63,745 nucleotides of DNA from an uncultured Lachnospiraceae bacterium (GTDB taxonomy: Bacteria; Bacillota; Clostridia; Lachnospirales; Lachnospiraceae). The position numbers and the translations under genes are program-made. Positions 7,259-58,732 of this stretch are shown piece after piece (the first letter of the stretch is position 1; the number at the start of each line of letters is the position of its first letter). The notes under the pieces were generated by a model. The model saw nothing but the letters and a program-made list of their open reading frames with translations, was not told where the DNA came from and did no database searches. Location: assembly GCA_905235545.1 (NCBI GenBank), contig CAJOMI010000001.1, positions 1-63,745 on the forward strand. The letters are read 5' to 3'.

Positions 7259-7274
7259 AGTTTGATGGGAAGGG

Positions 7275-10947: not shown

Positions 10948-10987
10948 TGAAAGCGCTTTTGTGTCATATCGATGAGGAGAATGTATT

Positions 10988-14095: not shown

Positions 14096-14120
14096 GGTAA
14101 TGTGGATAGGGAGTGATAGA

Positions 14121-17915: not shown

Positions 17916-17929
17916 AAAAATGCAATTAC

Positions 17930-17963
17930 AGTGACTGTTTCGTGACTGTTTGTGTTGTACAAT
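17930..17963 (+). promoter_or_regulatory. regulon promoter P3 (CIS tail operon): AGTGACT (17930-17936), CGTGACT (17941-17947), N10, TACAAT (17958-17963)
   Basis: Same 11-bp phasing and same N10 spacing to the -10. Intergenic, about 115 nt upstream of ATG 18080. Confidence 0.55.
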
Positions 17964-18079
17964 AATGACAACAGTTAAAGGTAAAACAGAAAGAAATTTG
18001 AATATTTGTCACACAATTGAAAAGATGTAATCAGAGTTTCACAATTACCGAATAATGGGATATATAGAAAGGGAAAAAT

Positions 18080-18676: not shown

Positions 18677-18679
18677 AAT

Positions 18680-19417: not shown

Positions 19418-19429
19418 GAGGAGGAACCT

Positions 19430-19819: not shown

Positions 19820-19837
19820 TTTGAAAGGAGAAAACGA

Positions 19838-38142: not shown

Positions 38143-38164
38143 ATATGACTTGGAGGACAAAGAT

Positions 38165-38464
38165 ATGACGATTAAAGAGATAAAAAAAGAAGGAGAAATT
38201 TTACTTGAAATCACGGGAAGGATTGATACCACAACGGCACCGGAGTTGCAGCAGGCGATATTGATCGCATTTCAAAAGGTAAAGAAACTGGTGATTGATT
38301 TTAAAGCCGTTGAGTACATATCAAGTGCCGGCTTGAGGGCTCTGTTGATCGGAGAGAAAACAGCCAAATCCAAGGGAAGCAGTATGGTCATTACCGGTGC
38401 AAATGATGCTGTAATTGATATATTTAAGGTGACAGGTTTTATCAATATTCTTACATTGGAATAG
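38165..38464 (+). CDS. STAS-domain anti-sigma-factor antagonist (SpoIIAA/RsbV-like)
   Basis: ITGRIDTTTAPELQQ…LVIDFKAVEYISSAGLRALL…MVITGANDAVIDIFKVTGF, with the conserved phosphorylatable Ser in ISSAGL. ATG 38165 follows GGAGGA (alternative TTG 38150). Confidence 0.8.
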   Translation: MTIKEIKKEGEILLEITGRIDTTTAPELQQAILIAFQKVKKLVIDFKAVEYISSAGLRALLIGEKTAKSKGSSMVITGANDAVIDIFKVTGFINILTLE

Positions 38465-38477
38465 GAGATATTACACA

Positions 38478-39578
38478 ATGAAAAAAGGGAAAATAATACT
38501 ACTGAATCTTGTTATAATTGCATATATCGTAACGGTGGCCGGCTGGTTCTTCAATGACGGAAGACTGTTTTATGGCGGATTTGGAACATTCACGGTTGTT
38601 CTCATCGCATTTATGATTGTTGCTATGATAAGGCCGAATACGCACAAGGATTTACAAGAGGAAGAAATCGAGACGGATGATCTTTATGATGACGGAGAGA
38701 AATATGAGGATAATGGTACGGAGGGAGCATTATCCGAAGATTTCGATGCAGCAGATACGTCGTATGAAACATTGGAACAAATATCGGAACGGTTTCGAAA
38801 TGCCAATCGTCACGATGATGATCAGAATGACGAAAATGGCAGTGAAGAATCGCAGGACGGAGAGGAAATTACGGGAGATATCAGTGAAGAGTCGCAGGAC
38901 GAAGAGGAAGGTACGGGAGATTTTAGCGCAGAGTCGCAGAGCGGAGAGGAAGGCACAGGAGATGTCAGTGCTTACCGGATGGCGATTGAAGATCTGAAGG
39001 AAGAACTTGTCGAGGTGCGTGAGGAGCTGGAACGCGCAAACCATGAATTGGCGGAATTACGGTCCAAAGAAAAGGATTCTCGCGAGAGGGGATTGTCCAT
39101 CCTTCCGGAGAGTATGATGCCAAAGGAAGAACTGGACACCATTAATATCGTTGACGTCGCAAAGGGTGTGGCCGATGAACTTCAAACGGATGCTTTTAAG
39201 GCAGGTCTCAGAGTACAGGTTTCCGCCGGAGAGGAACAGATTCTTGTGCGGGCGGATGAAGAACTTCTCCGTGTTTTGTTCCGCAACATTGTGGACAATT
39301 CAATCAAATATATGAATCGTCAGGGGATTCTGGTCATTACACTTTCTACGATAGGTGATGATCTGTTTGTGGTTTTAAAGGATAACGGAGACGGATTAGA
39401 TCCGGAAGAGACAAATCATATTTTTGAGTTAAATTATCAGGGCTCAAACCGAATATCCGGAAACGGTCTTGGACTTGCACAGGCAAAGGCTGTTGTGGAA
39501 TATTATGGTGGAAATATATATGCGAAATCAACGCAGGGTGGCGGTATGGGAATATATATTCAACTGCCGACATCGTGA
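38478..39578 (+). CDS. membrane-anchored HATPase_c protein with acidic repeats and no clear DHp/H-box
   Basis: Two N-terminal TM segments, then an acidic repeat region and a coiled coil. N-box FRNIVDNSIKY, G1 DNGDGL and G2 GNGLGLAQAK follow. Only a weak NHELAEL string sits where an H-box would be, and the DHp second helix seems missing. Confidence 0.6.
   Translation: MKKGKIILLNLVIIAYIVTVAGWFFNDGRLFYGGFGTFTVVLIAFMIVAMIRPNTHKDLQEEEIETDDLYDDGEKYEDNGTEGALSEDFDAADTSYETLEQISERFRNANRHDDDQNDENGSEESQDGEEITGDISEESQDEEEGTGDFSAESQSGEEGTGDVSAYRMAIEDLKEELVEVREELERANHELAELRSKEKDSRERGLSILPESMMPKEELDTINIVDVAKGVADELQTDAFKAGLRVQVSAGEEQILVRADEELLRVLFRNIVDNSIKYMNRQGILVITLSTIGDDLFVVLKDNGDGLDPEETNHIFELNYQGSNRISGNGLGLAQAKAVVEYYGGNIYAKSTQGGGMGIYIQLPTS
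38844..38972 (+). repeat. three 42-45-bp in-frame tandem repeats (EESQDGEEITGDIS-like)
   Basis: GA(A/G)(GAA/GAG)TCGCAG(G/A)(A/G)CG(G/A)AGAGGAA… recurs at 38844, 38886 and 38931. Confidence 0.7.
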
Positions 39579-39638: not shown

Positions 39639-39902
39639 ATGTCATTACTGTATTCGAATCTGTCGGACCGTTTGATGGAAGAGAATCGGCGGGTAAATGC
39701 AGAAAACAAACAAAAAAATGATATTCAGCAGGATCAGGATGAGGATGAGATGGGATATGCCTACGATGAGCCGGTGCATTTTGGATTTCTCAATGAGAAC
39801 AGAGGTATCTTTGTCAATAATGACGATGAGAATGCGCTGAATACGGCTAAAAGTGTATTTGACAAGACAGCAGTCTTTCGAGTAAAGCAGGACGAAGACT
39901 AG
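39639..39902 (+). CDS. small acidic hypothetical protein, 87 aa
   Basis: ORF with a GGAGGTGA RBS, in the same orientation, inside the operon. No family recognised. Confidence 0.4.
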   Translation: MSLLYSNLSDRLMEENRRVNAENKQKNDIQQDQDEDEMGYAYDEPVHFGFLNENRGIFVNNDDENALNTAKSVFDKTAVFRVKQDED

Positions 39903-39969: not shown

Positions 39970-42465
39970 TTGGCAGGTAGAAAGAAAAAAACGGATGAAA
40001 TGGAAGAACAGAATGTAGCGTTGGCGGAAACAAAGGGTACGAATGTTAAGAAGAAGTCGGATTCCGATGTGGAAGTGACGGGTGAAGAAAAGAAAAGAAC
40101 GCAAAGACCTTCTACGATAGACGGGAAGAAAGTCTGCGCATTTACGGGCTATGATGAATATATGCGGCATGTATTCCACTGTGTGAACACATGCCTTTCC
40201 GCATATTTGGAGAATATGAAGTTCACCTTTTCAAACGGACAGGGCGGATATAAAAACGTGCTCTATCCGGATTTGGAGATTGCTTCCGATTCCTGTAATG
40301 AGCAGATCATGAAATACGAGCAGATGTATGGGGAGCAGGAGGAAGTGGAAAAAGAGTATACGGAAAAAACAGGGGGAAAAGAAGAATTCGATGAGGATTT
40401 CCTTTCTCTGCTTGACGCATTTTCTGAGACTTCCGACAATGGGCAGGAAGAAAATTCAAAGAGCAACAAGAAATCTTCTGCCTCCGGTTCAAGCAAGGCA
40501 TTTGATGTGTTAGCACGTCTTGAATGGATATCGGCATGTGCGGAACGCACTGCGGAAAACGGAGTAAGGATGCCTTTTTACGAGCTTACAAAGAAGCTTG
40601 AAATGAGTCCTTTTGCAATGTTTACCTTTGCGAGTGGTGTGCTTTCTTCCACACAGACGGATTATGCCGGTATCTTCCAGATTGTGAATGAGAACGGCGG
40701 TCTCTCTTCTCCGACGATAGAAAGTGCGGCCAAAATCTTTTTCGGCCCCAATTATTCAATAACAGGGGCATACGGTGAGATGAGTGAATGCCTTGAAGTA
40801 TTGCTGCCAATCCTGGATCTTAGGGTAGTTTCCAGTATGCCGTTTTCCACGGTAATTTCTCCGGATAAGCGTATTATCGACTATTTGTTCGGCAAAGATC
40901 CTATGCGCCTTGATGAAAATTATATTCGTTTTTTCAAAATGCTTACGAATGATGAGGAACTGGATCCCATTATGGCGAATGATGGTCAACTTGAGGCAAT
41001 GAAAATATCCTACGGTGAGGGTGTCCGTATTTTCTCCTATTATGGAGACGAAGGAAGCGGAAGAAAGTTCTTTATACGTCATTTCTGCAAAGAAAACGAC
41101 CTTGGTGCGATATCGATCAATTGCAAGAAGTTGTTTGTATATGACTTTAATTTTGTGGAAAAGGCTCTGTGGGCAGTGACAAGAGAGTGTATCTTAACCA
41201 ATTCCTGCTGCTGTCTGGATGAGCTTACCTTTAGAGAGGATGAGAAGGAAAAATTCTACGGCTACATGGATCTGGCATTTGCAAAGCTTACGCAAAAGAA
41301 GATACTGGTATTTGCCATTAGCCGTGAGAAGTTAGCCATGAGAGATATTACCAAAGAAGAGGTGACGGAACTTGAGATACCGACCCCTACCAATGAGGAA
41401 CGCGAGAAATGCTGGAATTATTTTTCGGAAAAGTATGCGCTTGATAAGGATGTGGATAAGTTGGAGATGGCGACCAAGTTCCTTTTTACACCGGGTAAGA
41501 TCAAGTCCGCACTTCACAGTGCCAGAAGTCTTGCAACCATGAACAAGGAGATATTGATTTCACGCGCTACTCTGTTCCAGGGTTGTTACGGTCAGATGAG
41601 TTCGGAACTTACCCAGAAAGCTACTAAGATAAAGGCGAACTTTGGTTTTGAGGATATCGTTATGAATCGTGATCAGCGTGAGACGCTGGAGCATGCGATC
41701 GATCAGATGAACTTTAGAAAACAGGTATATGACGGTTGGCACTATACCAAGAAGTATCCATACGGACGAGGACTTTCAATTCTTCTGTTCGGAGCACCCG
41801 GTACCGGTAAATCCATGTGTGCCCAGGTTATCGCGCATGAACTGAATCTTGAACTTTACAGAGTCGATCTTTCAAAGGTTATTGATAAATACGTCGGTGA
41901 GACTGAAAAGTCTATTTCCATGATCTTTCGAGAGGCAAAGAAATGTAATGTCGTGTTGTTCTTTGATGAGTGTGATACCCTGTTTGCGAAGCGTTCCGAT
42001 GATGGAGGATCCAATCAGGCGTCCAACAATAATAAGACTGCTTTGCTGCTGCAGGAGGTTGAGGGATATGACGGTGTGTCTGTGCTTGCCACGAACTACA
42101 AGCATAATATAGATCCTGCGTTCTTCAGACGTATGAAATATATTGTAGAGTTCCAGTTCCCGGATGTGGACACGAGGGAGATGCTCTGGAACACTACGAT
42201 ACCGAAAGACACTCCTTTGGCCGATGATGTGGATATCCGATATCTGGCTGAAAAGTACGAGCTGGTTGGTGGTAATATCAAGAACTGTATACTGAATGCC
42301 GCTTTTCTGGCCGCAGCAGATCCTGAAGCCGAAGGAAAGGTACACATGGTACACTACCTGCAGGCTGTCAAATACGAGTTTGTTAAGGTTGGTAAAGTAT
42401 TTACACGTTCCGATTTTGAGCCTTATGCAGACCTGATCTTCGGAAAACAGGGCAGCCTGATATGA
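39970..42465 (+). CDS. Afp15-like CIS AAA+ ATPase, copy 1 (831 aa)
   Basis: The C-terminal AAA module has Walker A LLFGAPGTGKS, Walker B VVLFFDECD, and VLATNYKHNIDPAFFRRM. The N-terminal region is long and non-ATPase. TTG start after GAGGAG (alternative ATG 40000). Confidence 0.8.
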   Translation: MAGRKKKTDEMEEQNVALAETKGTNVKKKSDSDVEVTGEEKKRTQRPSTIDGKKVCAFTGYDEYMRHVFHCVNTCLSAYLENMKFTFSNGQGGYKNVLYPDLEIASDSCNEQIMKYEQMYGEQEEVEKEYTEKTGGKEEFDEDFLSLLDAFSETSDNGQEENSKSNKKSSASGSSKAFDVLARLEWISACAERTAENGVRMPFYELTKKLEMSPFAMFTFASGVLSSTQTDYAGIFQIVNENGGLSSPTIESAAKIFFGPNYSITGAYGEMSECLEVLLPILDLRVVSSMPFSTVISPDKRIIDYLFGKDPMRLDENYIRFFKMLTNDEELDPIMANDGQLEAMKISYGEGVRIFSYYGDEGSGRKFFIRHFCKENDLGAISINCKKLFVYDFNFVEKALWAVTRECILTNSCCCLDELTFREDEKEKFYGYMDLAFAKLTQKKILVFAISREKLAMRDITKEEVTELEIPTPTNEEREKCWNYFSEKYALDKDVDKLEMATKFLFTPGKIKSALHSARSLATMNKEILISRATLFQGCYGQMSSELTQKATKIKANFGFEDIVMNRDQRETLEHAIDQMNFRKQVYDGWHYTKKYPYGRGLSILLFGAPGTGKSMCAQVIAHELNLELYRVDLSKVIDKYVGETEKSISMIFREAKKCNVVLFFDECDTLFAKRSDDGGSNQASNNNKTALLLQEVEGYDGVSVLATNYKHNIDPAFFRRMKYIVEFQFPDVDTREMLWNTTIPKDTPLADDVDIRYLAEKYELVGGNIKNCILNAAFLAAADPEAEGKVHMVHYLQAVKYEFVKVGKVFTRSDFEPYADLIFGKQGSLI

Positions 42466-42569
42466 CAATAGATCAGAGCATTAGGGGGGCAAAATACCTT
42501 TTGACCCCAACATCATGATATAGATACATAATACTTCGTTAATTATTTTTCGGGAAACGGGGGGATAGT

Positions 42570-45500
42570 ATGGATGAAGTCGTATTGTCTGAAGAAGAGA
42601 TAAAAGAGCTGAAAAATCAGATTTTAAATGGTGTAAAAAATGCGAAAGCTCAAAATATAAAAGAAAGAAAACAAAAAATTTACAATGATAATGCAAATTT
42701 GATAAATGATTATCTGAAAAAACAAAGAGAACAGGAAATAGTACGGCGTAATAGAAAAAAGAAGTCCCGGACCGGTGGTAATAAGAATATCCAAAACAAT
42801 TATAATCGGACAGTAAAGAATGATCAGTCGGATAATTCTTTAAAGAATAATTTTATAAAGAAGGAAGAAGAAAAAAGGGAAGAGATCAATAACAGAATAA
42901 AGAAAAGCTTTCCGGAACCGGAAAAAACAGACGAAAATAAGCTTCCTGAGGTAGAAGGCGGGAAGGGTGTATTTGAGTTGCCACAAGATATGGAAATTGA
43001 AAAACAGCCTGAGGAGAAGAATGCAGGACAGGAAGATGAACTTATCTTAGAGATTAATGGAAAAGTGGTAGATATAGAGAATCTTGAGGAGAGAGTTTCC
43101 GCTGTACCGGGAATGGAAGAAGTAGAACAGAATGAAGAAAATGACCGGCAAGGTGACATTGCGGATCATGTGATCAATGAAGTCGGTGCAGCAAAGAATG
43201 AACCGAATAACGAAGTAGAGGAAGAAGCAAAGAATGAACGGAATAACGAAATAGAGGAAGAAGCAAAGAATGAACGGAATAATGAACCGAATAACGAAAT
43301 AGAGGAAGAAGCAAAGAATGAACGGAATAATGAACCGAAGGAAGAAGCAAAGAATGAACGGAATAATGAACCGAATAATGAAGTAGAGGACGCAGCAAAG
43401 AATGAACCGGAAATAGAATACGATGATTTTCTGAGTGGCTTATATTTTGTGCTGACCGGAAAAGAGAAGAGATATACTGCAGTAGAGAGAAATGAGCTTA
43501 TGGACAAAGACGTCGATAAGCGATTGTTATATCACCGTACGATGCAAAAAAAACTGGAACTTGATGCCGTTAACCAGATTAAAAAGGAAAGAAACAAAAA
43601 TGAGTTCAAAGACAAGATAAAAAATTTTGAAGAGAATATGCGGGATACTGACGGAATGAGGCGGATTGACGGTTTTCTTAAGATGGACTATACCATTTTT
43701 GATAACTTCGAAGACATCTATATTGTGTTGAACTTCGAAAAATTGAATAATGCAATTGAACAGTCGGAACATATTTATAAGGATGTGTTACCTTTAGCAG
43801 TCGAGGCCGGAACCATTGACGAGAACACCCGGGTGAATGTTACCGCGCTTGCAATGGCAATCGATGACTACAAGGAATATATGAATTATCGTATCATGAT
43901 AATAGCAGATGAGAATTATACGTTGGCATTAGACGAAGAACCGTTTAGAATGAACGCAGATGACGCTGCAATTTATGAGAGATTAGACAAGTTCACTTCA
44001 GACAATAATCTGAGTGAAAGAAACCTCAATACTTTGATGCACTTTGTTACATATAAGACCGGCATGAACGGTAATGACAAAGGTGATAGAAAAAGGAATC
44101 CTTTGTTTGCCGAACATTTTAATGATGAGAAGAGCAATATGCTTACCCGTATGCAGCAATACGGGTTTAGTGCTGAGGAAAAGGAAGAAAATGTTGATGA
44201 GGATATCGATGAGGATCTCGCTGCGCTTGAACAACAGGTAAAGGCTGAGGATGTTGATCAGGAGGCTGACAGGGAAGCTGCGAATATTCCTGAAGTCCCT
44301 GAGATACTTATTCCTAAGAGAAGAAGACAGCTTAATTATCTTATAACGGGAAATGATATTATGCCACAAGAGTTGCATGAGGGCGAAGAGAAAAACAGAA
44401 GTGACCTTGCGGGCAAGGCAAGAGAGATATATCAGGCGTGGGAGAATATGAATCCTGAACTTTCACTGGAAAGAGCTCTTCTTGATGTGTCCAAGTATGA
44501 GGAACAGGGTTTTATACTTCCGCCTGAGATACTTGAAGTGGTAAGGGCGGGAATCCGACCGGGAGAATCTCTTGAGGTAAGGAAGGCGAATGCAGATACT
44601 TTGGCTGAAGGAATGTATCGTGGAGATAATGAGGATGCTAAGCAACTTCCACATATATTGATCAGCAATTATATGCGGACTGATTTTTCAATATTTGATG
44701 CGCTGGATGATGAAGCAATCGTCAGTCATTACAACGAAGCAAAACGTCTGTTGAATTATGGTCTTTCTCTGCAGGAGCTGTTTTATCAGACAGCTGATAA
44801 TAAAACCTGTCTGCTTTCGCAGGACAGGGCAGATAATTTTTATGCCATTCTCTCCGCACTTAGGGATTATATGGATTACGCCACAATACGTATGGATATC
44901 ATTAGAAGTCCGTTTTATTCCCTGTTTGATGTTGATAAAGAGATTAAGGAACAGGATATTAAGCAGGTTGAGGATGCAGGTAAAGGAGAATATGAGGCAG
45001 ATTTGTTGATGTATATAAAAAAATATGCAGATATTGCTCCGTATATTGAAAAAGTAAAAAGAGGAGGCTTCTATGAACGTGCTTCGGGTTATGGATATGT
45101 TGATATAAATGAGTATCTTGATGAAAATCCGGAAATGCAGGAGAAATTCAGAGAGTATATCACACAGGAAAAGAATATGGAAATGTTTGCTGTACTTCCC
45201 CAACTGGTGGAGTATTATGGGGAGGAGGATGAGACAGCAATAGAAAATATTGCCCGAAGTAACGAATTGCGAATTGAGCGTAATAATTTTAACAATGTTC
45301 AAAAGGTTGTAGGCAGCAATAAGGATTATGATGAAGTGAAGAACGATCCGAAGTATGAAGAACAGACTGCAGGGCGTGAAGCTCTTTCGGAGAGGGCGGT
45401 TGAACTGATCAACAGTCTGAATGTTGAGGAAACGGATGCCAATATATGGCTGGATGAACTTATGGATACTGATGTGAGCATACTCGATAACATGTCTTCC

Positions 45501-48500
45501 GATGAGAAGCTGATAGAGCATTTTGAGGATATATTAAAGCTTACCACCAGATGGAAAATCATCAAGGAGAAGCTTTCCGTATATGATGAACAGGGAATGC
45601 ATATTCCTTCCGAAGACAGGATAAAACTTAAGGGATTACAGGAGATGCTTTCTGACGCACAGGTTTACCTTATATTAAAACTGAATCAGATAAAAAATCC
45701 ATTTTATAAGAATATGCACCTCTCTGACGAGATAGGCAATGAAAATACGGATGTAGAAGCATTTAACAGACGGTTAGAAAAATTCGAGAATGACAATGCG
45801 GAGCTTATGAACTATGTGCAGGCAACAGGGCTTGTTGTCAATTCCGCATTTCTTTCGATGTTTGCCGGCAATGGAAAGAATACGGCAGAGAAATATATTC
45901 AGGCTGTTTCAACTTCAGAGGAAGCAAGAATACAGGAAACAAACCAAAATCGTATATCGAAAATGGCAGATAACTATGCAGCTGTCACTTATCTGTTTGA
46001 CGGAGGAGAGGGACAGATTAACGCAGATATGCGCTTATTTTCTGAGGGATCAGGTAAGCGAGAAGGAAGAACCAAAAAAAGCTTAGAGGCAGTAGACGCG
46101 TATACTGCGTATAACGAAAAAGTTATGGATACTTTTAAGACGGCCAAAGAAAGGTTAAAAGTAATCCGTTATGCAAATTATGATATCGATCCTAAGATCA
46201 TCAACGGAATTTATACAATGTTAAAGATCGGAGGTACTGAAGAGGACATCAAGTATAATACAGAGCTCCTTATGAACCTCGGGGCGGAGAATATTAACAC
46301 AAGAGGAGCAGCGTACAAAGAGATGGTAGATAACTTACTCGCTGTTGAGCTATCTAAGTTTGACAGATGCGATGATGAGTATTTTATCGCTAATTATACG
46401 GAGCTTAAGTCTTTAGCGGAACCGGCAATCGCATTGGCCCGGCCGGGAGTGATCAATTCGTTTGCAAAGAACGGATATCGAATATCAGAACAGAAGAAGA
46501 AAAATCTGGTTGCCCTTTCGGATAATATCAAAAAATATATGGACTTTATGGATGCACGTATGAAGGTCATTCAACATCCGCTTTACGAACTCGTATTTCG
46601 GGAGACGGATAACAACAAGGATTTCAAACCTGAGGAATTGAAACAACGGATGTTAAGAGCCGGTCAGATGATGAGTTCAAAAGACAGGGACTATATAGAG
46701 GTTCTTGTGAATGCATTCTCCGTAAGCTTTCCGTTTGCAATGCGTAATATGTCTATGCGGGAACGACTTGAAGCAGACGGTTATAAAACTCCGGAGGGAG
46801 GAGCTTATGATGAGGATATCGCCGGTAATGAGGCTTATCAGCAAGAGATTGCAGACGATCATATAATAAAAGAGACAGTGGAGCTTCGGACAGAGCAGTT
46901 CGTTACCAATGTGCTCAAAGAACTTGGCACGGGTGATGGAAAGCAGAGTTTGGAGGATTATGAGAAGCAGAACGCTGACAGGGAGAAGAGAAAAACACTT
47001 TCCGAGAAAATGAGAACACTTCCGGAATTCGATAGCGTCGAGCCGGTAATACTTGTAATGGATCTTTTGGCAGGACATGAGGATGTAATTAATGCATTCC
47101 TCTCCATGGATTTTAAGGAACTTGATAATCTTAGTGATGAAACTATCGTTGAAAGATATCAGGATATAGCAGCACTTTGCAGAGTGGATGATCAGGTTCG
47201 TCCGGCGCTTGAAACACTAAGGGCAGATTATAATGATACGAACAAGGATGCGAAGGATAAACCAACAACCACAACAATATCTGCAGTGGTGGGCAGACTG
47301 GAAATGCTGAATGATCTGAGAAATTATATGGTGGTTAAGAGATTGGTTATCAGCAATCCACTATATGAGAAGCATTATAATGAGGCTTATCTATCGTATC
47401 ATGAAGATGCGGGTGCTATGCATGATAAGATAGATTCTTTGGAGGGAAAGCTAAGCGAAGATGAGGCGGAATATCTTAGGAATGTTGCAAGTATTATGAG
47501 TAAACCGTTCATGGCAAGATACACCGGCAACGGTAAAACCACGGCTGATGCTTATGGAAAACAGCAGGAAAACGATAACTTTGCAAGAGGCGAGCTGAAA
47601 GATGAAGGTAAAAAGAACGTCATTTTAGATGAGAATGAAAGATCTGCGGGTGAGATTTCCGGTGATCCGGAGGATATCAATACTTCGTTGGCGAATATAG
47701 AGGGAGAACTGGGTTCTAAAGCAATGTCGGAACCGTTGAATGAATTGAAAACATTCACGGAAACTTCCCAATATCAGCAACGGCTCTATAAGAGAGAAAT
47801 GCAAACCAGAAATTTTTCCAAAGATATCAACCATAATATGCAGCCGATCAAGGAACAGATTAAAATAATATTTAATCTGTTAAATGAGGAGATGAATTAC
47901 GGTCATGATGACCAGTTTGCTGAAGAATTGGATTTGCTACTCAATCATTTTGAGGTATTGGGTGTATTATGCAGTCAGTATCTGACCGGTACGCGAAACA
48001 AAACGTCGGATGATATGAATCAGGCTGCGATCAGAAAGGTGCGAAGGATCAGAGATATTGCCCATTATGCATATACCCAGACATACACCAGTGCGCGCAT
48101 GAGCCGTATATATTTCAGACAGCAGGATATATCCGGAAGAAGAGTTCCATGGATCAATATGTATCACTATGCGGAGCAACCTATTGTATGGGAACAGGGA
48201 TTGGTTCCATATACAGAGATCAATAAAGAAGAAATATCGGCGATAAAAGGTGAGAAGAAACCAAGGACCAGGCTTAAGGAATTTACACCTGAGGATAATT
48301 CTTTTGTGAAGATCGAACACTGGATGACAATATTTTCCGAATGCAAGCCAGACTATGTCAATGCGATTGACCGTGAGCTGTCCATTAAAGACATGGAAAA
48401 GATTGAGAAGCTGGTAAACACTGTAAATATGCGGACAAATCAGGGGCTTCCGGATGATTCGAGGGATTTTATCCGGGCATGTGATGATATGATACATTCC

Positions 48501-48803
48501 TTTACCGCTACGAATATTCGATTAAAAAAGTATATTGATAATATGAAGGTTGAGACGGAGGATGACAAGACACAGAAGCGGATGTTGGAGAATGTTATGT
48601 ACCTGTTGAAGTCACAGATTGATTTATACAATGTATATGGAAATAGCGTTCCGGATACATACGAGGTTATAAAGAATGATCCCAAGAATGATACGATCAG
48701 TGATGTATTTTTGTCATGGTATCAGGATTATGCAGCCAGAGCCATAAAAAAGATGGAACAGATGAAGCAGGTGGAAGCAGGTACAGGTGAGAAAGATTCG
48801 TAA
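42570..48803 (+). CDS. giant charged repeat protein, 2077 aa, five ~250-330-aa internal modules; function unknown (cargo or scaffold candidate)
   Basis: Single uninterrupted ORF with a GGGGGGA RBS. A recurring motif pair [ST]D[FV]SI[FL]D … Y[ML]D[YF]…R[ML]x[IV]I..P[FL]Y appears five times. No signal peptide, TM or catalytic motif recognised. Confidence 0.6.
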   Translation: MDEVVLSEEEIKELKNQILNGVKNAKAQNIKERKQKIYNDNANLINDYLKKQREQEIVRRNRKKKSRTGGNKNIQNNYNRTVKNDQSDNSLKNNFIKKEEEKREEINNRIKKSFPEPEKTDENKLPEVEGGKGVFELPQDMEIEKQPEEKNAGQEDELILEINGKVVDIENLEERVSAVPGMEEVEQNEENDRQGDIADHVINEVGAAKNEPNNEVEEEAKNERNNEIEEEAKNERNNEPNNEIEEEAKNERNNEPKEEAKNERNNEPNNEVEDAAKNEPEIEYDDFLSGLYFVLTGKEKRYTAVERNELMDKDVDKRLLYHRTMQKKLELDAVNQIKKERNKNEFKDKIKNFEENMRDTDGMRRIDGFLKMDYTIFDNFEDIYIVLNFEKLNNAIEQSEHIYKDVLPLAVEAGTIDENTRVNVTALAMAIDDYKEYMNYRIMIIADENYTLALDEEPFRMNADDAAIYERLDKFTSDNNLSERNLNTLMHFVTYKTGMNGNDKGDRKRNPLFAEHFNDEKSNMLTRMQQYGFSAEEKEENVDEDIDEDLAALEQQVKAEDVDQEADREAANIPEVPEILIPKRRRQLNYLITGNDIMPQELHEGEEKNRSDLAGKAREIYQAWENMNPELSLERALLDVSKYEEQGFILPPEILEVVRAGIRPGESLEVRKANADTLAEGMYRGDNEDAKQLPHILISNYMRTDFSIFDALDDEAIVSHYNEAKRLLNYGLSLQELFYQTADNKTCLLSQDRADNFYAILSALRDYMDYATIRMDIIRSPFYSLFDVDKEIKEQDIKQVEDAGKGEYEADLLMYIKKYADIAPYIEKVKRGGFYERASGYGYVDINEYLDENPEMQEKFREYITQEKNMEMFAVLPQLVEYYGEEDETAIENIARSNELRIERNNFNNVQKVVGSNKDYDEVKNDPKYEEQTAGREALSERAVELINSLNVEETDANIWLDELMDTDVSILDNMSSDEKLIEHFEDILKLTTRWKIIKEKLSVYDEQGMHIPSEDRIKLKGLQEMLSDAQVYLILKLNQIKNPFYKNMHLSDEIGNENTDVEAFNRRLEKFENDNAELMNYVQATGLVVNSAFLSMFAGNGKNTAEKYIQAVSTSEEARIQETNQNRISKMADNYAAVTYLFDGGEGQINADMRLFSEGSGKREGRTKKSLEAVDAYTAYNEKVMDTFKTAKERLKVIRYANYDIDPKIINGIYTMLKIGGTEEDIKYNTELLMNLGAENINTRGAAYKEMVDNLLAVELSKFDRCDDEYFIANYTELKSLAEPAIALARPGVINSFAKNGYRISEQKKKNLVALSDNIKKYMDFMDARMKVIQHPLYELVFRETDNNKDFKPEELKQRMLRAGQMMSSKDRDYIEVLVNAFSVSFPFAMRNMSMRERLEADGYKTPEGGAYDEDIAGNEAYQQEIADDHIIKETVELRTEQFVTNVLKELGTGDGKQSLEDYEKQNADREKRKTLSEKMRTLPEFDSVEPVILVMDLLAGHEDVINAFLSMDFKELDNLSDETIVERYQDIAALCRVDDQVRPALETLRADYNDTNKDAKDKPTTTTISAVVGRLEMLNDLRNYMVVKRLVISNPLYEKHYNEAYLSYHEDAGAMHDKIDSLEGKLSEDEAEYLRNVASIMSKPFMARYTGNGKTTADAYGKQQENDNFARGELKDEGKKNVILDENERSAGEISGDPEDINTSLANIEGELGSKAMSEPLNELKTFTETSQYQQRLYKREMQTRNFSKDINHNMQPIKEQIKIIFNLLNEEMNYGHDDQFAEELDLLLNHFEVLGVLCSQYLTGTRNKTSDDMNQAAIRKVRRIRDIAHYAYTQTYTSARMSRIYFRQQDISGRRVPWINMYHYAEQPIVWEQGLVPYTEINKEEISAIKGEKKPRTRLKEFTPEDNSFVKIEHWMTIFSECKPDYVNAIDRELSIKDMEKIEKLVNTVNMRTNQGLPDDSRDFIRACDDMIHSFTATNIRLKKYIDNMKVETEDDKTQKRMLENVMYLLKSQIDLYNVYGNSVPDTYEVIKNDPKNDTISDVFLSWYQDYAARAIKKMEQMKQVEAGTGEKDS
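43191..43410 (+). repeat. tandem 36/48-bp in-frame DNA repeats encoding AKNE(R/P)NNE(PNNE)(I/V)EEE units
   Basis: GCAAAGAATGAAC(C/G)GAATAA(C/T)GAA… recurs six times from 43191 to 43395. Confidence 0.8.
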
Positions 48804-48851: not shown

Positions 48852-51056
48852 ATGTATGGATACGGAGATTATTATGACGAGAGACTTACCCAAATTCCAT
48901 ATACGGACAGCAGTGAAGAACTTGAGGATTACAGGGCATTAGTTGAGATTATGTTAGAGGATCTGGCGGGAATCAAGGGGGTCGGCACAGAGGAAGGATT
49001 GTTCTCCAAAGGGCTGGTAATCTCCGAAGCAGAGATGCAGGAGTATTTTGTGAATCACCCTTCCGTCAGAGAAAAGGATTTTTATTTCTATATATTGGGT
49101 GATGTGGTGAAACAGGCAATAGGACACATAGAAAGCAGAGAGGAGAGCACATCGGATAATGTCTTTTTGCCCATAAGGAATATCAGAAAGAATTTTGGAC
49201 TCAGTGACGCTTGGACAGTGGCATTGGTACTTGCCTTCCTTGCCCATACGAACAGGGGATATGAGAGAATATATGGATTTTTGCAGGATGATATAGAAAG
49301 CAGTGAACCGACACTGGGACTTGCTGTTTCTTTGTGTGAGAGAGCCTTTTATGAGGATAAACTCAGTGCTTCAGATATACTGTCGGACAAGTCATATCTG
49401 TTCGGAACGTTATTCATGGAGGAGGGAATCAATCCGGTATATCCTCTTCGCACGAAACTGATCCTGACAGGAGCAGCACTGACTTATATGAATGGGAATA
49501 CCACTCTTTTTGGTTATGGTGCCGGGATTCCGTATGGCTTGCTATGTGAATATGAAGACGGGAAGACGCCGGCCTTTTTTGAAAAGGAGGTAAAGGTGCT
49601 TTTCAATCTGATCAGACATGGTGACGCGTTACCGTGCCTGTTTGTGGAAGGCAGGGATCAGGATGCGATCATTCATGTGGCAGCGCTGGCGGCGCGTGCT
49701 AACGGAAAGCGTTTCGTCACCGTGTCGGGTGAGTCAATAAGTACGGCAGATGAAATGGAATGTTCCGGTATGGTGGCTTTTTTGTCTTTTTATGGTCATA
49801 TGGAAGGAATTACGGTGATGGTAACGGATGTGACGGATGAGAGGCTTGCAGATGAATCCTTTACGCGCATATTGAAGAGATTGATCCGGACAGAGGGAAT
49901 TGCCCCATTTCTATTTGCAGGAAGTGATCAGACACCGGAAAGATTTAAGACCGGAGCTGCGACGGGAACGCCTGTCCTCCATTTGCAACTACCGGTACCG
50001 GATGTAAAAGTCCGAACCACGATATGGGATTATTTTATCAAAGATGCCGGATTGTCCAAAGAAAAGGGATTTTCCAGCGAGGAGATCGCAGACTGTTATG
50101 AGGTAGGCTATGGTGTTATCAAGACTGCAGTGTCCCAGGCAAAACTCAATATGCTGGCAAATGGAGTAAAAAAGGTTAACAAGGATATCGTAGCCGATGC
50201 ACTGAAAGGAATCGGAACGGTCAACTTCAAAGGACTGGCCAAGGAGGTGCGGGCAGTCTACACATGGGAGGATCTTTGTATTGGAGATACGGAGCGCAGA
50301 GTGCTTCAGACGGCATGTGACCGCTATAAGATAAAGAACCGCATCGGTGAGAACTGGGGCATTACGAAAAAAAATGCTTACGGAAACGGTGTATCGGTGT
50401 TGTTGTATGGTCCGCCGGGAACCGGTAAAACCATGTCGGCACAGGTGGTGGCAAGAGAAATCGGACTTCCGTTATATCGTGTAGATACGTCGCAGCTCTT
50501 CTCAAAATATATCGGGGAGACACAAAAGAACTTAAATGCGGTATTTGACGAGGCAGAGGCTTCCAATGTGATACTGTTTTTTGATGAGGCGGATGCGCTT
50601 TTTTCAAAGAGGACGGATGTGGAGAGTTCCAATGACCGTCATGCTAATCAGGAAATCGCTTTTCTTCTCCAGAGGATAGAGGAATATAAAGGAATGAGTC
50701 TGCTTGCCACAAACTTTTATTCGGGATTTGATCAGGCATTTGTACGTCGTATCACATACGCGGTGAGATTAGAACAGCCGGATTACGAGACAAGACTCTC
50801 TCTTTGGAACAATACGCTTCCGGAAGAGGTCCCGAAGGAAAAATCAATTGATTATGAATTTTTAGCAAAGAATTTTGAACTTACGGGAAGTAACATCAAG
50901 GCAATCCTTCTCTCGGCTGCTTATATGGCCGGAGCAGAGGACGGAATGCTTTCCATGGCACATATCGTCCGGGCTATGAAATATGAGTTTGACAAGCTCG
51001 GCATGATGCCGGACTCGGGCAAATTTGGACCTTATTCCGTGTATTTGTTTGGATGA
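48852..51056 (+). CDS. Afp15-like CIS AAA+ ATPase, copy 2 (734 aa)
   Basis: Walker A LLYGPPGTGKT, Walker B ILFFDEAD, and LLATNFYSGFDQAFVRRI. The C-terminal module is clearly alignable to copy 1. Confidence 0.8.
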   Translation: MYGYGDYYDERLTQIPYTDSSEELEDYRALVEIMLEDLAGIKGVGTEEGLFSKGLVISEAEMQEYFVNHPSVREKDFYFYILGDVVKQAIGHIESREESTSDNVFLPIRNIRKNFGLSDAWTVALVLAFLAHTNRGYERIYGFLQDDIESSEPTLGLAVSLCERAFYEDKLSASDILSDKSYLFGTLFMEEGINPVYPLRTKLILTGAALTYMNGNTTLFGYGAGIPYGLLCEYEDGKTPAFFEKEVKVLFNLIRHGDALPCLFVEGRDQDAIIHVAALAARANGKRFVTVSGESISTADEMECSGMVAFLSFYGHMEGITVMVTDVTDERLADESFTRILKRLIRTEGIAPFLFAGSDQTPERFKTGAATGTPVLHLQLPVPDVKVRTTIWDYFIKDAGLSKEKGFSSEEIADCYEVGYGVIKTAVSQAKLNMLANGVKKVNKDIVADALKGIGTVNFKGLAKEVRAVYTWEDLCIGDTERRVLQTACDRYKIKNRIGENWGITKKNAYGNGVSVLLYGPPGTGKTMSAQVVAREIGLPLYRVDTSQLFSKYIGETQKNLNAVFDEAEASNVILFFDEADALFSKRTDVESSNDRHANQEIAFLLQRIEEYKGMSLLATNFYSGFDQAFVRRITYAVRLEQPDYETRLSLWNNTLPEEVPKEKSIDYEFLAKNFELTGSNIKAILLSAAYMAGAEDGMLSMAHIVRAMKYEFDKLGMMPDSGKFGPYSVYLFG

Positions 51057-51243: not shown

Positions 51244-52203
51244 ATGAAACCAGATACCAAAACCTATTATGATATTCCTGAAGATTTTATGAATCGCTTA
51301 AAAGAGCGGGGATATAAGAAAGTAACCGGCGAACAGAAGAAAGAGTTCGATCCTTATTATGATAAGATGAATGAACATTGGTGTGCGAATACCAGTTTTG
51401 TGAATCTATGGGGATGGAGTGATACCTTTCCGGTATATTGTAAAATATCAAACGGATATGTATACCTGATCCAATTCCTGCGGACAGACGGATATCCGGT
51501 GGCTAGTCCTTTTTTGGGATGTTATACGAAAGATGGGATTACAGAGGCAATCAGGGAAATTAAAAAGGATTTTGAATATTTTGAGTATCCGTTGGTGTTC
51601 ATGGATATTACGCCATGGATGCTCCCCTATTTTACAGAGACCGGAATTGATTTTGAGATAGAAGATCTTAGAGAACTTCAGGATTATATCTATACACCGG
51701 AGGCTTTATGGGAGGGATTGAATCAATCCGATGATCGTTATCGGTATCGTTATTTTAAGAGAAGATATCAATACGAGACAATAGAACTGAACTCAGAACA
51801 TGCAGATGAGTGTCTGCGCTTCATGGATGAGCATTGGTGTAAATTCGAGGAGTGCAGCAAATGCTGCGGTTGTTTGAAACAAGTGATATTCCGTGTGGTT
51901 TCAAAATTTGACACGCCTGACGAATATGGTATATTGGTACGTGTAGAGGGGAAGACAGCCGGTATATGCATTGTGTCAAACAGAAATGGTCTTGGAATTT
52001 ATCAATACAAAAATGCTGTCAATCAGATCAAGGGAATCAATGAATATTTGTTGCGCGAATGCTTTGAACGCTATTTGCAGAATGTAGATGTTATTAATTA
52101 TACAGAAGATATGGGTATAGAAAATCTGCGTTATTATAAGGAGCATTTGACCTCTCATTATTCGCTGCTCTCAAAATATACATTAAGTGAAAAGGTTAGA
52201 TGA
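51244..52203 (+). CDS. DUF2156 / LPG_synthase_C-like (GNAT-fold, aminoacyl-transferase-like) protein, paralogue A
   Basis: …DYIYTPEAL…DDRYRYRYFKRRYQYETIEL…GILVRVEGKTAGICIVS…KGINEYLLRECFERYL…INYTEDMGIENLRYYKEHL follows the DUF2156 layout as I remember it. It has a CSKCCGC cysteine cluster. Confidence 0.5.
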   Translation: MKPDTKTYYDIPEDFMNRLKERGYKKVTGEQKKEFDPYYDKMNEHWCANTSFVNLWGWSDTFPVYCKISNGYVYLIQFLRTDGYPVASPFLGCYTKDGITEAIREIKKDFEYFEYPLVFMDITPWMLPYFTETGIDFEIEDLRELQDYIYTPEALWEGLNQSDDRYRYRYFKRRYQYETIELNSEHADECLRFMDEHWCKFEECSKCCGCLKQVIFRVVSKFDTPDEYGILVRVEGKTAGICIVSNRNGLGIYQYKNAVNQIKGINEYLLRECFERYLQNVDVINYTEDMGIENLRYYKEHLTSHYSLLSKYTLSEKVR

Positions 52204-55235: not shown

Positions 55236-56900
55236 ATGAAGAGATCAGAAGGAAAGAAGAAAAAAAAGATAGGAAAAAGATTACGTCTGTTTACAACAAT
55301 TGTAATATTGACATTGACTATTATTTTAATTGGTAGTTCCACGGTACTGAATGTTATTTTTTTAAAAAACTTTTATAACGATAAAACGATGCAGATCGCA
55401 AAAGAAGCGGCAGATATGGTGGACCCGGAATATATCAGTGAATTATATGCAGCAATTTCGACAGAAGAGTATCGTCAAATATTTCAAAGAGCAGAGGAAC
55501 AGAATGACTTCTCAGAGGTTGAACAGTGGATGGACGAAAAAGGCTTTCGGACAGAATTTGAACAGGAGATTGCCAAGTTAAAACAATTGGGAGAAAATAT
55601 GTCAGCGAAATATATTTATGTTCAAATCGTGGAGGGGGATAAGTGCTTTACGATTTTAGACCCGTATGAAGAATATATTTCAGTTGGATGTGTAGATGAG
55701 CTTACAGGCAGCGCTTATGAAGATATTCATGGAAACCAACAGGTAACTCCTATCGTGGCAAAAACGGAATATGGCTGGTTGTCGACCGGAGGACAACCTA
55801 TTTACAACACGTCAGGGGACCCGATTGCGATTGCGTTCTGTGATGTTGATGTGACGGATATGGTCAACAATATTGGAAGGACGGTATATATTAATGCAGC
55901 TATAAGTTTATTGATGGCATGTTGTATTTCTCTCTATATGGGAAGACATATCAAAAGAGAAATTACGTCTCCCATTGAAAAACTTACGGATGCGGCAGAT
56001 GACTTCCGAAACGATGAGGCAGGCTTTTCAAAAGATAAGGTTGCTTTTTTGGATATAAATACCGGTGATGAGATTGAAGAATTATATCATGCTATACATT
56101 TCATGCAGGAAAGTATTATAGAATATATGGATAATCTGACCACGATTACAGCGGAGAAAGAGAGAATCAGTGCAGAGCTGGATGTGGCGACACGCATTCA
56201 GGCAAGTATGCTTCCAACAGTATATCCGGCCTTTCCGGATCAAAAAGAGTTTGATATTTATGCATCCATGAAACCCGCGAAGGAGGTGGGCGGTGATTTT
56301 TATGATTACTTTTTAATAGATGATGATCATCTGGGAATTGTGATCGCGGATGTTTCGGGAAAGGGAGTACCTGCTGCACTCTTTATGATGATGAGCAAGA
56401 TTGTAATATCGAACTTTGCGCATATGGGACTTTCGCCGTCGGAAGTCTTGAAGAAGACGAATGACTATATATGCAAGAGCAACGAAGAGGAAATGTTTGT
56501 AACGGTATGGTTTGGAATTATGGAAATATCGACCGGGCATATTGTGGCAGGAAATGCAGGGCATGAATATCCTATGATCCGGAGAAAGGATGGAGACTTC
56601 GAGATCATGGAAGATAAGCATGATTTTGTGCTTGGCGGTATAGCAGAGATGTCATATACAGAGTATGCGTTCGATTTGGAAAAGGGAGATACTCTTTTCA
56701 TCTATACGGACGGATGTCCGGAAGCGACAAATGAGCAGAATGAACTCTTTGGTACAGACCGTATGTTGGAGGCATTGAACAGAAATGCCGATGCAGATCC
56801 AATAGAGATTTTGGAAAATATGACAAGTGCAGTAAATGATTTTGTGAAGAGTTCCCCACAATTTGATGATTTGACCATGCTTGCGTTGAAATTTGTATGA
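55236..56900 (+). CDS. membrane-bound PP2C (SpoIIE/RsbU-type) phosphoserine phosphatase with extracytoplasmic sensor and HAMP-like linker
   Basis: TM LFTTIVILTLTIILIG, a Cache-like segment, a second TM, then ELDVATRIQASMLP…EVGGDFYDYFLIDDDHLGIVIADVSGKGVPAALFMMM…LFIYTDGCPEA…DDLTMLALKF. Confidence 0.8.
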   Translation: MKRSEGKKKKKIGKRLRLFTTIVILTLTIILIGSSTVLNVIFLKNFYNDKTMQIAKEAADMVDPEYISELYAAISTEEYRQIFQRAEEQNDFSEVEQWMDEKGFRTEFEQEIAKLKQLGENMSAKYIYVQIVEGDKCFTILDPYEEYISVGCVDELTGSAYEDIHGNQQVTPIVAKTEYGWLSTGGQPIYNTSGDPIAIAFCDVDVTDMVNNIGRTVYINAAISLLMACCISLYMGRHIKREITSPIEKLTDAADDFRNDEAGFSKDKVAFLDINTGDEIEELYHAIHFMQESIIEYMDNLTTITAEKERISAELDVATRIQASMLPTVYPAFPDQKEFDIYASMKPAKEVGGDFYDYFLIDDDHLGIVIADVSGKGVPAALFMMMSKIVISNFAHMGLSPSEVLKKTNDYICKSNEEEMFVTVWFGIMEISTGHIVAGNAGHEYPMIRRKDGDFEIMEDKHDFVLGGIAEMSYTEYAFDLEKGDTLFIYTDGCPEATNEQNELFGTDRMLEALNRNADADPIEILENMTSAVNDFVKSSPQFDDLTMLALKFV

Positions 56901-56960
56901 AGCGAACAAGGCATTTATCTCGTTAGTGAATCTTGGAGTGATGTTGAGGAGGTATATTTT

Positions 56961-57392
56961 ATGAGTAGCAAGGAAGAATTAGAAATTGAAGCGGTGGTGG
57001 AAAATTTACCGCGGGTACTTGATTTTGTGAATTGCAATTTGGAAAACAAAGATTGTCCACAAAATGTGCGGGTGCAGATTGATATTGCAGTAGAGGAGAT
57101 CTTTGTCAATATAGCATCCTATGCGTATCAACCGGGAAAAGGTCCGGCGTGTATTGAAGTTGAGGTAAAAGACGATCCACTTTCTGTGGAACTAACATTT
57201 ATCGATGGAGGTGTACAGTATGATCCGTTGGCGAAGGATGACCCGGACATTTCAATGTCGGTTGATGAGCGTGAGATTGGCGGACTTGGAATTTTTATGG
57301 TGAAACAAACTATGGATTATGTAGAATATGAATATGTAAATGGCAGGAATATTCTAAGGATAAAGAAAAATTTTGACAACGAAGAGCAATGA
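56961..57392 (+). CDS. RsbW/SpoIIAB-like anti-sigma factor / STAS serine kinase (HATPase_c_2)
   Basis: 143 aa. …VQIDIAVEEIFVNIASYAY…FIDGGVQYDP…GGLGIFMVKQTMDYVEYEYVNGRNILRIKK matches the anti-sigma regulatory kinase pattern. Confidence 0.75.
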   Translation: MSSKEELEIEAVVENLPRVLDFVNCNLENKDCPQNVRVQIDIAVEEIFVNIASYAYQPGKGPACIEVEVKDDPLSVELTFIDGGVQYDPLAKDDPDISMSVDEREIGGLGIFMVKQTMDYVEYEYVNGRNILRIKKNFDNEEQ

Positions 57393-57455
57393 GAATAAGA
57401 AGAATGGATGCAGATGTATTTTTCTGCAGTATTCTTTAATGTTAGGATGATGCGA

Positions 57456-58601
57456 ATGAGAAAATATAAGATATTCGTAAGTTCGGTTATTTTAGTGCTT
57501 TTCTCCATAATAGTCAATACAATGGATTTGACAGTGTATGCGACTCCCGTATCAGGTGTTCATGAAGAATATGAGGAGGCGAAAAATCAGGCCGAGATGG
57601 ATGATTTGACGGTAAGCAGGCTGATTGAACGGATAGCGGAGATGAATAGCGAAATGATAGAAGATGCCGAATTGATCGAACGGACATTTCAGGAATTGTC
57701 CGACCTTGAGAAAAAGACGAAAGAGTCCGAACAACGGCTTGAGGAATATGAAGATGACTATGAAATGGCAAAAGAGTATCTTTATAAAAATATTCAAATG
57801 GAATATGAATCAGGTGTCCGCAAGAGTTTATTGCTTTCCTTTTTGGACTCGGAGTCGATAATGGATTTTCTGCATCGCACGGAGTATCATGATGCTGTTC
57901 ATACATATATCGATGAGAGGATGTTTTCCTCTGAATGGATGATCGAGCGGTCGGAAAAAGAGAAAGAAAATCTTTCGGAAATAACAAATGCAAAGAAGAT
58001 AGAACTGGAAAAATATGAAAGTCAAAAAGAAGTTCTTAGTGAAAAGGTGACCGAGCTTTCCATCATGATGCAGGAAGCGAAGGAGATGGCAGATTCCTCC
58101 AAAAAATTTGAAGAAGAACTTGAGAAAAAAATAGCGGAAATGGAAGAACAGGAGCGGGAACTGACCAGACAGGGCGGGAATAACGGAGATAACAGTAATG
58201 TTGATTATACAGGGAATGGCACAAAGTATTATTATGAGTCGGCATATCCATATACTGATACCGAACTTACGTTGATGGCAGGAATTATTCAGGCAGAGGC
58301 AGGCAGTACAAGCTATCCGGGGATGATTGCGGTTGGGAGTGTTGTCATGAATCGTGTGGCAAGTCCCCGATTTGATAATACGATTGAAGGTGTGATCTAT
58401 GCCAAAAGTCAGTTTGAACCGGTAGCAACCGGAAGACTTGCCGTAATTCTTGCAAACGGTCCGGAAGCTTCGTGTTATACGGCTGCAAAAGATGTTTTAA
58501 GCGGGAAACGCAATGTCCCTAATTATTATTTTAAAGCTGCATGGTATGCAAGGGAGCATGGTATACAGGGAGTTGAGATTGGAGGAAATGTGTTTCATTA
58601 A
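57456..58601 (+). CDS. secreted cell-wall hydrolase: coiled-coil N-terminal region + SleB/Hydrolase_2 domain (ORF opens at 57408)
   Basis: The signal peptide MRKYKIFVSSVILVLFSIIVNTMDLTVYA fits ATG 57456, which follows AGGA. The C-terminus LTLMAGIIQAEAGSTSYPGMIAVGSVVMNRVASPRFDNTIEGVIYAKSQFEP is the SleB-type hydrolase signature. Confidence 0.7.
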   Translation: MRKYKIFVSSVILVLFSIIVNTMDLTVYATPVSGVHEEYEEAKNQAEMDDLTVSRLIERIAEMNSEMIEDAELIERTFQELSDLEKKTKESEQRLEEYEDDYEMAKEYLYKNIQMEYESGVRKSLLLSFLDSESIMDFLHRTEYHDAVHTYIDERMFSSEWMIERSEKEKENLSEITNAKKIELEKYESQKEVLSEKVTELSIMMQEAKEMADSSKKFEEELEKKIAEMEEQERELTRQGGNNGDNSNVDYTGNGTKYYYESAYPYTDTELTLMAGIIQAEAGSTSYPGMIAVGSVVMNRVASPRFDNTIEGVIYAKSQFEPVATGRLAVILANGPEASCYTAAKDVLSGKRNVPNYYFKAAWYAREHGIQGVEIGGNVFH

Positions 58602-58732
58602 GTTTCATTAAGTACCGGCGGCTCCAAAGCACCTGTTTGTGGAATCTGTACAATATGTACAATCTAATATATAATATTAATGAGTTTCACAATTATCTAG
58701 AGATAAGGAGAGTTGAAGGGAGATATAGAACT

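Follow-up and report, generated by a model that had tools for sequence, protein, structure and literature searches.

The 63,745-nucleotide stretch analysed here (the window; positions 1 to 63,745 of contig CAJOMI010000001.1, assembly GCA_905235545.1, from an uncultured Lachnospiraceae bacterium) encodes, at 42570..48803 on the plus strand, a giant protein of 2077 amino acids. The giant, as we call it below, is a three-part protein with a leader of ~310 residues, five repeated modules and a helical C-terminal domain. It represents a previously undescribed module family within a little-studied but widespread lineage of injection systems from gut and rumen. Based on its genomic context, we tentatively regard it as most likely a cargo of the contractile injection system predicted from the neighbouring genes, either non-enzymatic or with an activity that is not yet recognised.

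Five divergent modules in one protein

The open reading frame (ORF) of the giant comprises an ATG start, 2077 codons and a stop. It is preceded by a G-run resembling a Shine-Dalgarno site (42559-42565), and the genes of the window form one long plus-strand run. A database protein with 100% identity comes from this contig only. We conclude that the giant is a real, lineage-restricted protein. A first-pass annotation of the window, made from the sequence alone, had described the product as strongly charged and had recognised no signal peptide, transmembrane (TM) segment or catalytic motif, setting it apart from the usual enzymatic toxins. These statements were upheld: charged residues make up 34% of the protein, the net charge is -132, the maximum Kyte-Doolittle mean over 19 residues is 1.45 with no TM segment, no signal peptide was found, and no enzymatic feature was recognised in the giant.

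The same annotation had proposed that a two-part signature recurs five times. All ten signature peptides it quoted are present, each no more than 3 nt from where it had been placed. The first part starts at residues 373, 704, 967, 1260 and 1511 (nt 43686, 44679, 45468, 46347 and 47100) and the second at residues 434, 764, 1032, 1320 and 1583, giving a spacing of 60-72 residues and module periods of 331, 263, 293 and 251 residues. The homologous unit spans ~250 residues, as the similarity reaches well beyond both signature motifs and includes a further conserved stretch, F..[RK]Y.G.GK....Y. We delimited module 1 (residues 313-570, 43506..44279), module 2 (644-893, 44499..45248), module 3 (903-1156, 45276..46037), module 4 (1200-1450, 46167..46919) and module 5 (1451-1702, 46920..47675), all on the plus strand. 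Module 4 is the best conserved of them.

The repeat check bore out the internal homology. When non-overlapping segments of the giant were compared by BLASTP, nine of the ten module pairs aligned in register over 91-239 columns with E values of 3e-4 to 2e-12. Smith-Waterman scores of the same nine pairs exceeded those of 200 shuffled sequences with z = 5.7-15.5, and no shuffle reached the observed score; the only weak pair was modules 3 and 4 (z = 1.9). Negative controls, in which modules were compared with the N-terminus or the C-terminus, remained at chance level (z -1.6 to 1.9). A profile built from the five modules matched five times in each full-length homologue. Across seven homologues, modules at the same position scored 278-394 against each other and modules at different positions 63-117, which indicates that the five-fold structure predates the family as a whole. 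Two types can be told apart, A (modules 1, 2 and 4) and B (modules 3 and 5), arranged as A-A-B-A-B.

Consistent with the helical character predicted earlier, AlphaFold2 models of module 4 and of the C-terminal domain were both all-helical. The module 4 model, computed from 20 aligned modules, is an all-alpha bundle with a pLDDT of 68 and a pTM of 0.62. It contains 14 helices of 4-29 residues joined by short loops, the longer ones measuring 14-29 residues, indicating a compact bundle at moderate model confidence. In the charge-hydropathy plot the modules are borderline. Foldseek searches with this model returned nothing significant (best E 0.66 in the PDB and 0.26 in BFVD, TM at most 0.25).

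A chain of ~200-250-residue all-alpha bundles recalls the talin rod and spectrin- or vinculin-type repeats, and talin R5, R9 and R4 were among the nominal top Foldseek matches, at non-significant values (E at least 0.66, TM at most 0.25). We therefore considered membership in known helical repeat folds (talin rod, spectrin, BAR and PhoU) and rejected it, since no superposition was significant and the likeness is architectural only.

Leader and C-terminal domain

The modules are preceded by a non-repeat leader of ~310 residues, which adds to the first-pass annotation. Its first part (residues 1-120, 42570..42929, plus strand) is basic and of disorder type, with a net charge of +10. The second (residues 121-312, 42930..43505, plus strand) is an acidic low-complexity spacer with a net charge of -38, the least conserved part of the giant, and contains a tandem repeat of 2.6 copies of an 84-nt unit (43197-43412). 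Both parts lie deep in the disordered region of the charge-hydropathy plot. An exception in the otherwise hypervariable leader is the short motif SRTGGNK (residues 66-72, 42765-42785), which reads [RQ]QP[AG]GNK in the orthologues. Given that this QPxGNK-type motif is confined to orthologues of the giant, we rejected the possibility that the leader is common to the giant and other putative effectors.

At the other end, the non-repeat C-terminus previously estimated at ~550 residues shrinks to ~375, comprising residues 1703-2077 (47676..48800, plus strand) with a core at ~1750-2050. This domain is the most conserved region of the protein. Of its 19 invariant residues none is Cys or His, and several are Tyr, Gln, Lys or Asp; they include V1824-R1825-R1826, Y1833, Q1837-T1838, K1896, D1963, D2029 and W2050. 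Its AlphaFold2 model is all-alpha (pLDDT 63), with several helices of 30-39 residues. A Foldseek search against the PDB gave a best E of 0.35 and matched only a four-helix segment of ~115 residues. Two further interpretations of the domain were tried and discarded. A degenerate sixth module is rejected by a profile-profile probability of 0.2% and by shuffling tests at chance level. A Cys/His-dependent hydrolase is rejected because the Cys and His residues of the SECKPD and RACxDMIH motifs are not invariant, being kept in close homologues and replaced in P0007-P0009.

Homology searches and relatives

The description of the module as uncharacterised held in every database searched. Neither single-sequence nor profile searches of Pfam, PHROGs, NCBIfam, PADLOC and the sequences of the PDB matched the giant. 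No Pfam domain, DUF4157 included, was found anywhere in the giant at E <=0.01, and the leader (residues 1-312), module 4 and the C-terminal domain, each searched alone, had no Pfam match even at E <=10. The structural searches proposed in the first-pass annotation, run for a single module against the PDB and BFVD and for the C-terminal domain against the PDB, likewise returned nothing significant. Literature searches retrieved no description of the family.

When 1.84 billion representative proteins were scanned exhaustively by HMMER for the module profile, 13 proteins were recovered at E <=1e-3. The five best are ~1950-2270 residues long with five modules each, and the rest are shorter with one to three modules. 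Short relatives of this kind, with one to three modules, are also encoded in the gene arrays beside ATPase 1 that are described below. In the short relatives the first module usually follows an N-terminal stretch of ~130 residues, and single-module proteins are encoded directly 3' of the first ATPase gene in three loci (L030, L034 and L091). An indexed homology search, in which the giant was used without its low-complexity N-terminus, found four homologues with 42-62% identity. Four further loci came from metagenome-assembled genomes of Lachnospiraceae, two of them from roe-deer abomasum and goat rumen. All full-length relatives have five modules and 1954-2266 residues, and all occupy the same position in contractile-injection-system loci of Lachnospiraceae. 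The giant thus founds an undescribed domain family.

Genomic context

Judged from its genes, the locus at 18080-38142 is a contractile injection system. It encodes a Pvc16-type cap, a DUF4280 (PAAR-like) protein, a sheath, a gp19-type tube, a chaperone-like ORF, a tube-domain protein with repeats, a repetitive ORF of 846 residues, two CIS_tube proteins, a hub-like protein and a spike protein with an OB-fold, followed by the baseplate genes (gp25, two baseplate-J proteins and a P2-I-like protein). No tail fibre gene was recognised in the locus. The best solved relatives of the sheath are 9ezm and then 8bky/8bl4, the latter presumably from a cytoplasmic Streptomyces system, and we therefore omit the qualifier "extracellular".

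The baseplate genes are followed, all on the plus strand, by genes for a STAS-domain protein (38150-38464) and a membrane HATPase_c kinase (38478-39578), both of partner-switch type and syntenic across loci, a conserved 87-residue ORF (39639..39902; 68-84% identical across loci), ATPase 1 (39970..42465), the giant and ATPase 2 (48852..51056). The gene of the giant is therefore flanked by AAA+ genes on either side, and no convincing terminator separates it from them. ATPase 1 (831 residues) has a single C-terminal AAA domain, and its gene is the left neighbour of the giant's position in all loci. ATPase 2 (734 residues), on the right, combines a winged-helix domain with a Cdc48/VAT-like AAA domain. 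The N-terminal region of ATPase 1 (~560 residues) has no known domain. More than 80 relatives of ATPase 1 are present in metagenomes from rumen and human gut.

The block Tail_P2_I, STAS, kinase, ~86-residue ORF, ATPase 1, giant and ATPase 2 recurs in the related loci wherever the contig extends far enough, and in L001 no ATPase 2 was found within the 7.7 kb covered downstream of the giant. This synteny is kept in nine related loci, including L008, whose giant is only ~19% identical overall. In the same loci, identities to the window amount to 84-88% for ATPase 1, 68-80% for baseplate proteins, 54-66% for ATPase 2 and 42-57% for the giant; in L008 the giant is barely alignable at ~19%, and the adjacent ATPase is 86% identical. 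The giant is thus fixed in position and architecture, yet drifts rapidly.

A variable slot next to ATPase 1

With ATPase 1 as probe we found 80 sister loci (62-87% identity) in metagenomes from rumen and human gut. Core baseplate genes were seen wherever upstream sequence was covered; the upstream genes cluster tightly, whereas the downstream genes do not. No full-length homologue of the giant was found in any of the 80 sister loci. Among the 47 that extend past ATPase 1, 40 carry another ORF of at least 600 residues after it, falling into 21 sequence clusters with sizes of 600-2100 residues, and the remaining seven have no large ORF at this slot. Most of the slot ORFs examined are acidic, and a Pfam domain is lacking in five of the six that were tested, the sixth being the second ATPase. 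An arrangement in which an unrelated protein is sandwiched between ATPase 1 and ATPase 2 was found in L019, L076, L085-087 and L090. Other ORFs of ~2000 residues in sister loci were considered as remote homologues of the giant, for which neither phmmer nor the module profile gave support even with filters off.

Domains of toxin type occur in the same arrays, namely ADPrib_exo_Tox (L002), a calpain-like protease (L003 and, weakly, L036) and Fic (L011). Moreover, large ORFs from different clusters share N-terminal regions of ~90-220 residues (at most 53% identical) and diverge over the rest of the sequence compared, as do the ORFs at 15786-19931 and 20014-22503 of L028/L029 and those at 14089-20382 of L035 and 10935-13745 of L063. 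As far as sequence comparison can tell, common N-termini with differing remainders are the pattern of polymorphic effectors with a putative common delivery domain.

A shorter N-terminal sequence also recurs in these arrays. The first ~75 residues of the calpain-like protein of 755 residues (L003, 14924-17191) are found again, 67% identical, as free-standing ORFs of 77 residues (L002, 19664-19897; L005, 14470-14706; L006, 12126-12362), the one in L002 lying just upstream of the ADP-ribosyltransferase toxin gene. The sequence may represent a common loading leader or a split gene.

Genes for GNAT acetyltransferases of ~280-305 residues are interleaved with the large ORFs (38 ORFs in 31 loci, L012-L091), and PF00583 was detected in nine of the ten tested. 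Literature searches found no description of an association between GNAT proteins and injection-system cargo. A role as partner or immunity gene specific to the giant was not supported, as the neighbour in the window belongs to PF09924 and has no detectable similarity to the GNATs of related loci.

The giant as possible cargo

The giant gene is situated next to Cis15-type AAA+ ATPase genes and downstream of baseplate genes, in the window as in related loci. In the sister loci, the slot beside this unfoldase-type ATPase holds differing large proteins mixed with toxin-domain proteins, which supports cargo, the reading that we rank first, as the role of the giant. Its long disordered leader and borderline-stable helical modules fit the same picture. 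In PVC and AlgoCIS, cargo is marked by a disordered N-terminal loading sequence specific to the system, the Cis15 AAA+ protein is needed for loading, and cargo that resists unfolding fails to be loaded (bioRxiv 10.64898/2026.05.27.728243). By analogy, one or both ATPases would recognise the disordered leader of the giant, unravel its helical modules, which are marginally stable, and feed the chain into the lumen of the tube. Contraction would then expel the giant together with the tube, and its conserved C-terminal domain would carry a non-enzymatic or not yet recognisable activity. Recognition by the ATPases, lumen loading, injection and an effect on a target are steps that we infer only from these better-studied systems.

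The comparison with known lumen cargo (PVC Pdp1/Pnf, AlgoCIS Cgo1/Cgo2 and MAC Mif1/Pne1) reveals both likeness and difference. In common with these proteins, the giant is encoded next to a Cis15-type AAA+ ATPase in a slot that varies between related loci, and has a long N-terminus predicted to be disordered before its folded domains and no secretion signal. Unlike them, it has neither DUF4157 nor a recognisable effector domain, and no sequence or fold similarity to them was detected. It is two to four times larger, consists of five paralogous modules, is flanked by two ATPases and belongs to Gram-positive Lachnospiraceae. Giant effectors associated with contractile injection systems do exist, such as Afp18 of Serratia entomophila in the size class of ~2,000-2,400 residues. 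Tme of Streptomyces davawensis, with 2247 residues, provides a precedent for a cargo of ~2,250 residues; in addition to DUF4157 it has predicted TM helices and, besides a tape-measure-like region, a nuclease domain of EndA type (PMC11126660). The giant shares with Tme and Afp18 the size class, the association with an injection system and large uncharacterised regions before a C-terminal functional domain, and is set apart from Tme, as the latter is described, by lacking all four of its listed features. Among the Firmicutes proteins associated with extracellular contractile injection systems, EAT8 of Paenibacillus and EAT12 of Ruminiclostridium (Ccel_1518), both annotated "Nucleoporin?", are of unknown fold and experimentally toxic (PMC8213781).

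Several observations weigh against cargo. No domain of enzymatic or known effector type is present in the giant, and DUF4157 is lacking. It is fixed and position-conserved in its own sub-lineage, and recognisable toxin genes vary downstream of ATPase 2; such a pattern is also compatible with an accessory or structural role. Its N-terminus is the least and its C-terminus the most conserved part, the reverse of the usual pattern across cargo families, and the ~75-residue leader of the calpain-like and ADP-ribosyltransferase-associated ORFs is absent from both the giant and the window. The structure models reach moderate confidence only (pLDDT 63-68). The cargo role, read from gene context, is as yet unproven. 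The first-pass annotation had called the giant the prime cargo candidate. Its placement of the gene directly after an AAA+ ATPase stands, and the variable slot of the sister loci adds to it; "prime" was too strong, given the fixity of the giant in its sub-lineage and the recognisable toxin-domain genes that vary further downstream.

Alternatively, the giant might be an accessory factor that is not injected, for example a scaffold, tether, regulatory substrate or adaptor that works with the two ATPases and the STAS, kinase and phosphatase proteins in positioning or licensing a cytoplasmic system. We consider this rather unlikely, though the strongest rival of the cargo reading. Among all full-length relatives there is strict conservation of the protein's presence, of its position and of its five modules, the conserved C-terminus is as expected of a docking domain, and partner-switch regulators are conserved in the locus. 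That no tail fibre was recognised, and that the solved sheaths nearest after 9ezm are those we take to be from a cytoplasmic Streptomyces system, points in the same direction. Lineage-specific accessory proteins are also known from related systems, namely CisA of Streptomyces and, in haloarchaea, a membrane anchor. Against such a role, the giant has neither a TM segment nor a membrane-binding feature. No full-length homologue was found in the 80 sister loci, in which the same ATPase and baseplate genes are retained, so that the machine as such does not need the giant, and it diverges very fast relative to its presumed partners.

Rapid divergence at nearly constant length (1954-2266 residues despite low identity) is also what a tape measure or lumen ruler like Cis14/Afp14 might display, in which a helical chain lies in the tube with its C-terminus docked on the spike or hub and its length sets that of the tube. 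The giant resembles Afp14/Pvc14/Alg14 and phage gp29/gpT in being helical, internally repetitive and most conserved at its C-terminus, and its gene is directly upstream of that for a Cis15-like ATPase, as is Afp14 in Afp. Furthermore, lineage II systems lack a recognisable Afp14 (PMC6899500). Against this, the ORF of 846 residues at 24188-26728 is a better-placed and more conventional candidate, and the modelled module folds into a compact bundle, with helices of 14-29 residues, rather than an extended helix. No similarity to tape-measure families was detected in Pfam, PHROGs, NCBIfam or the PDB sequences, and a fold search of BFVD gave nothing significant. At the ruler ratio of ~0.22 nm per residue (bioRxiv 10.64898/2026.05.27.728243), 2077 residues would correspond to a tube of ~450 nm, a length well beyond that of known particles. 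Nor is the family universal in the lineage, being absent from the 80 sister loci, where the slot encodes 600-2100 residues or, in seven of 47, no large ORF. A ruler function is therefore improbable. Even less probable is a target-recognition or hypervariable surface component that replaces the missing tail fibre. The hypervariable slot, the fast evolution of the giant and the lack of a recognised fibre gene in the locus would agree with it, but the giant is all-alpha, very acidic and disordered over its N-terminal 300 residues, whereas the fibres we know of are beta-rich trimers, and it adjoins unfoldase genes rather than baseplate genes.

Returning to cargo, a more specific version can be envisaged in which the giant belongs to a new class of non-enzymatic, "structural" cargo. 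Its five bundles would be threaded by two unfoldases, fill most of the lumen, possibly gauge or stabilise the tube, and refold in the target as an acidic binding scaffold; the module would then be the Lachnospiraceae counterpart of a DUF4157-like loading domain. We regard this elaboration as speculative and improbable.

Other genes of the window

Two ORFs within the injection-system locus encode repetitive proteins. The product of 453 residues (22822-24183) starts with a tube-like domain that is followed by about six W[AE]FD..K..G.G repeats. The adjoining protein of 846 residues (24188-26728) contains long internal repeats of the form NI.QNEE.YRNLT.ITQEMQQ...SGER.PSDPN.PETRE. Its gene lies downstream of the tube gene and the chaperone-like ORF, with only the 453-residue ORF between, and is a tape-measure candidate by position. 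Upstream of the cap gene, seven consecutive plus-strand ORFs (2068-17915) encode proteins of 595, 280, 843, 414, 746, 1035 and 1271 residues, in which Pfam matched only MORN repeats and a weak OEP-like coiled coil. These may be further accessory or cargo genes.

A complete partner-switch set is distributed over 38150-39578 and 55236-57392 and consists of the STAS protein, the HATPase_c kinase, a HAMP-SpoIIE PP2C phosphatase and an RsbW-like HATPase_c_2 kinase. Its presence within and after the locus, together with the synteny of the STAS protein and the first kinase, suggests that assembly or firing of the injection system is controlled by phosphorylation.

A second cargo candidate besides the giant is encoded at 57408-58601. 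This protein of 397 residues starts with a hydrophobic segment that may be a signal or anchor, continues with an acidic, coiled-coil-like region and ends in a cell-wall hydrolase domain of SleB type (PF07486). It could be either an alternative antibacterial cargo or lysis protein, or an ordinary germination enzyme, as the nearby gene for a CspB protease (59757-61547) would suggest. The hydrolase gene is flanked by two paralogous PF09924 genes (LPG_synthase_C-like, of double-GNAT type) at 51244-52203 and 58637-59689.

Implications for injection systems of Gram-positive gut bacteria

Contractile injection systems of Gram-positive bacteria from gut and rumen are almost unstudied, and their cargo escapes the usual searches for toxin domains. 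The type of locus described here, with a highly conserved ATPase, a slot for unrelated giant acidic proteins and GNAT genes, is widespread in rumen and human-gut metagenomes. If the slot proteins are indeed cargo, they would constitute a large hidden repertoire of effectors. The giant would then be a natural example of the loading of a very large protein, with a bearing on how unfoldases load cargo and on the engineering of particles for protein delivery. For experiments on these systems, the five-module family provides a defined domain together with a conserved C-terminal domain.

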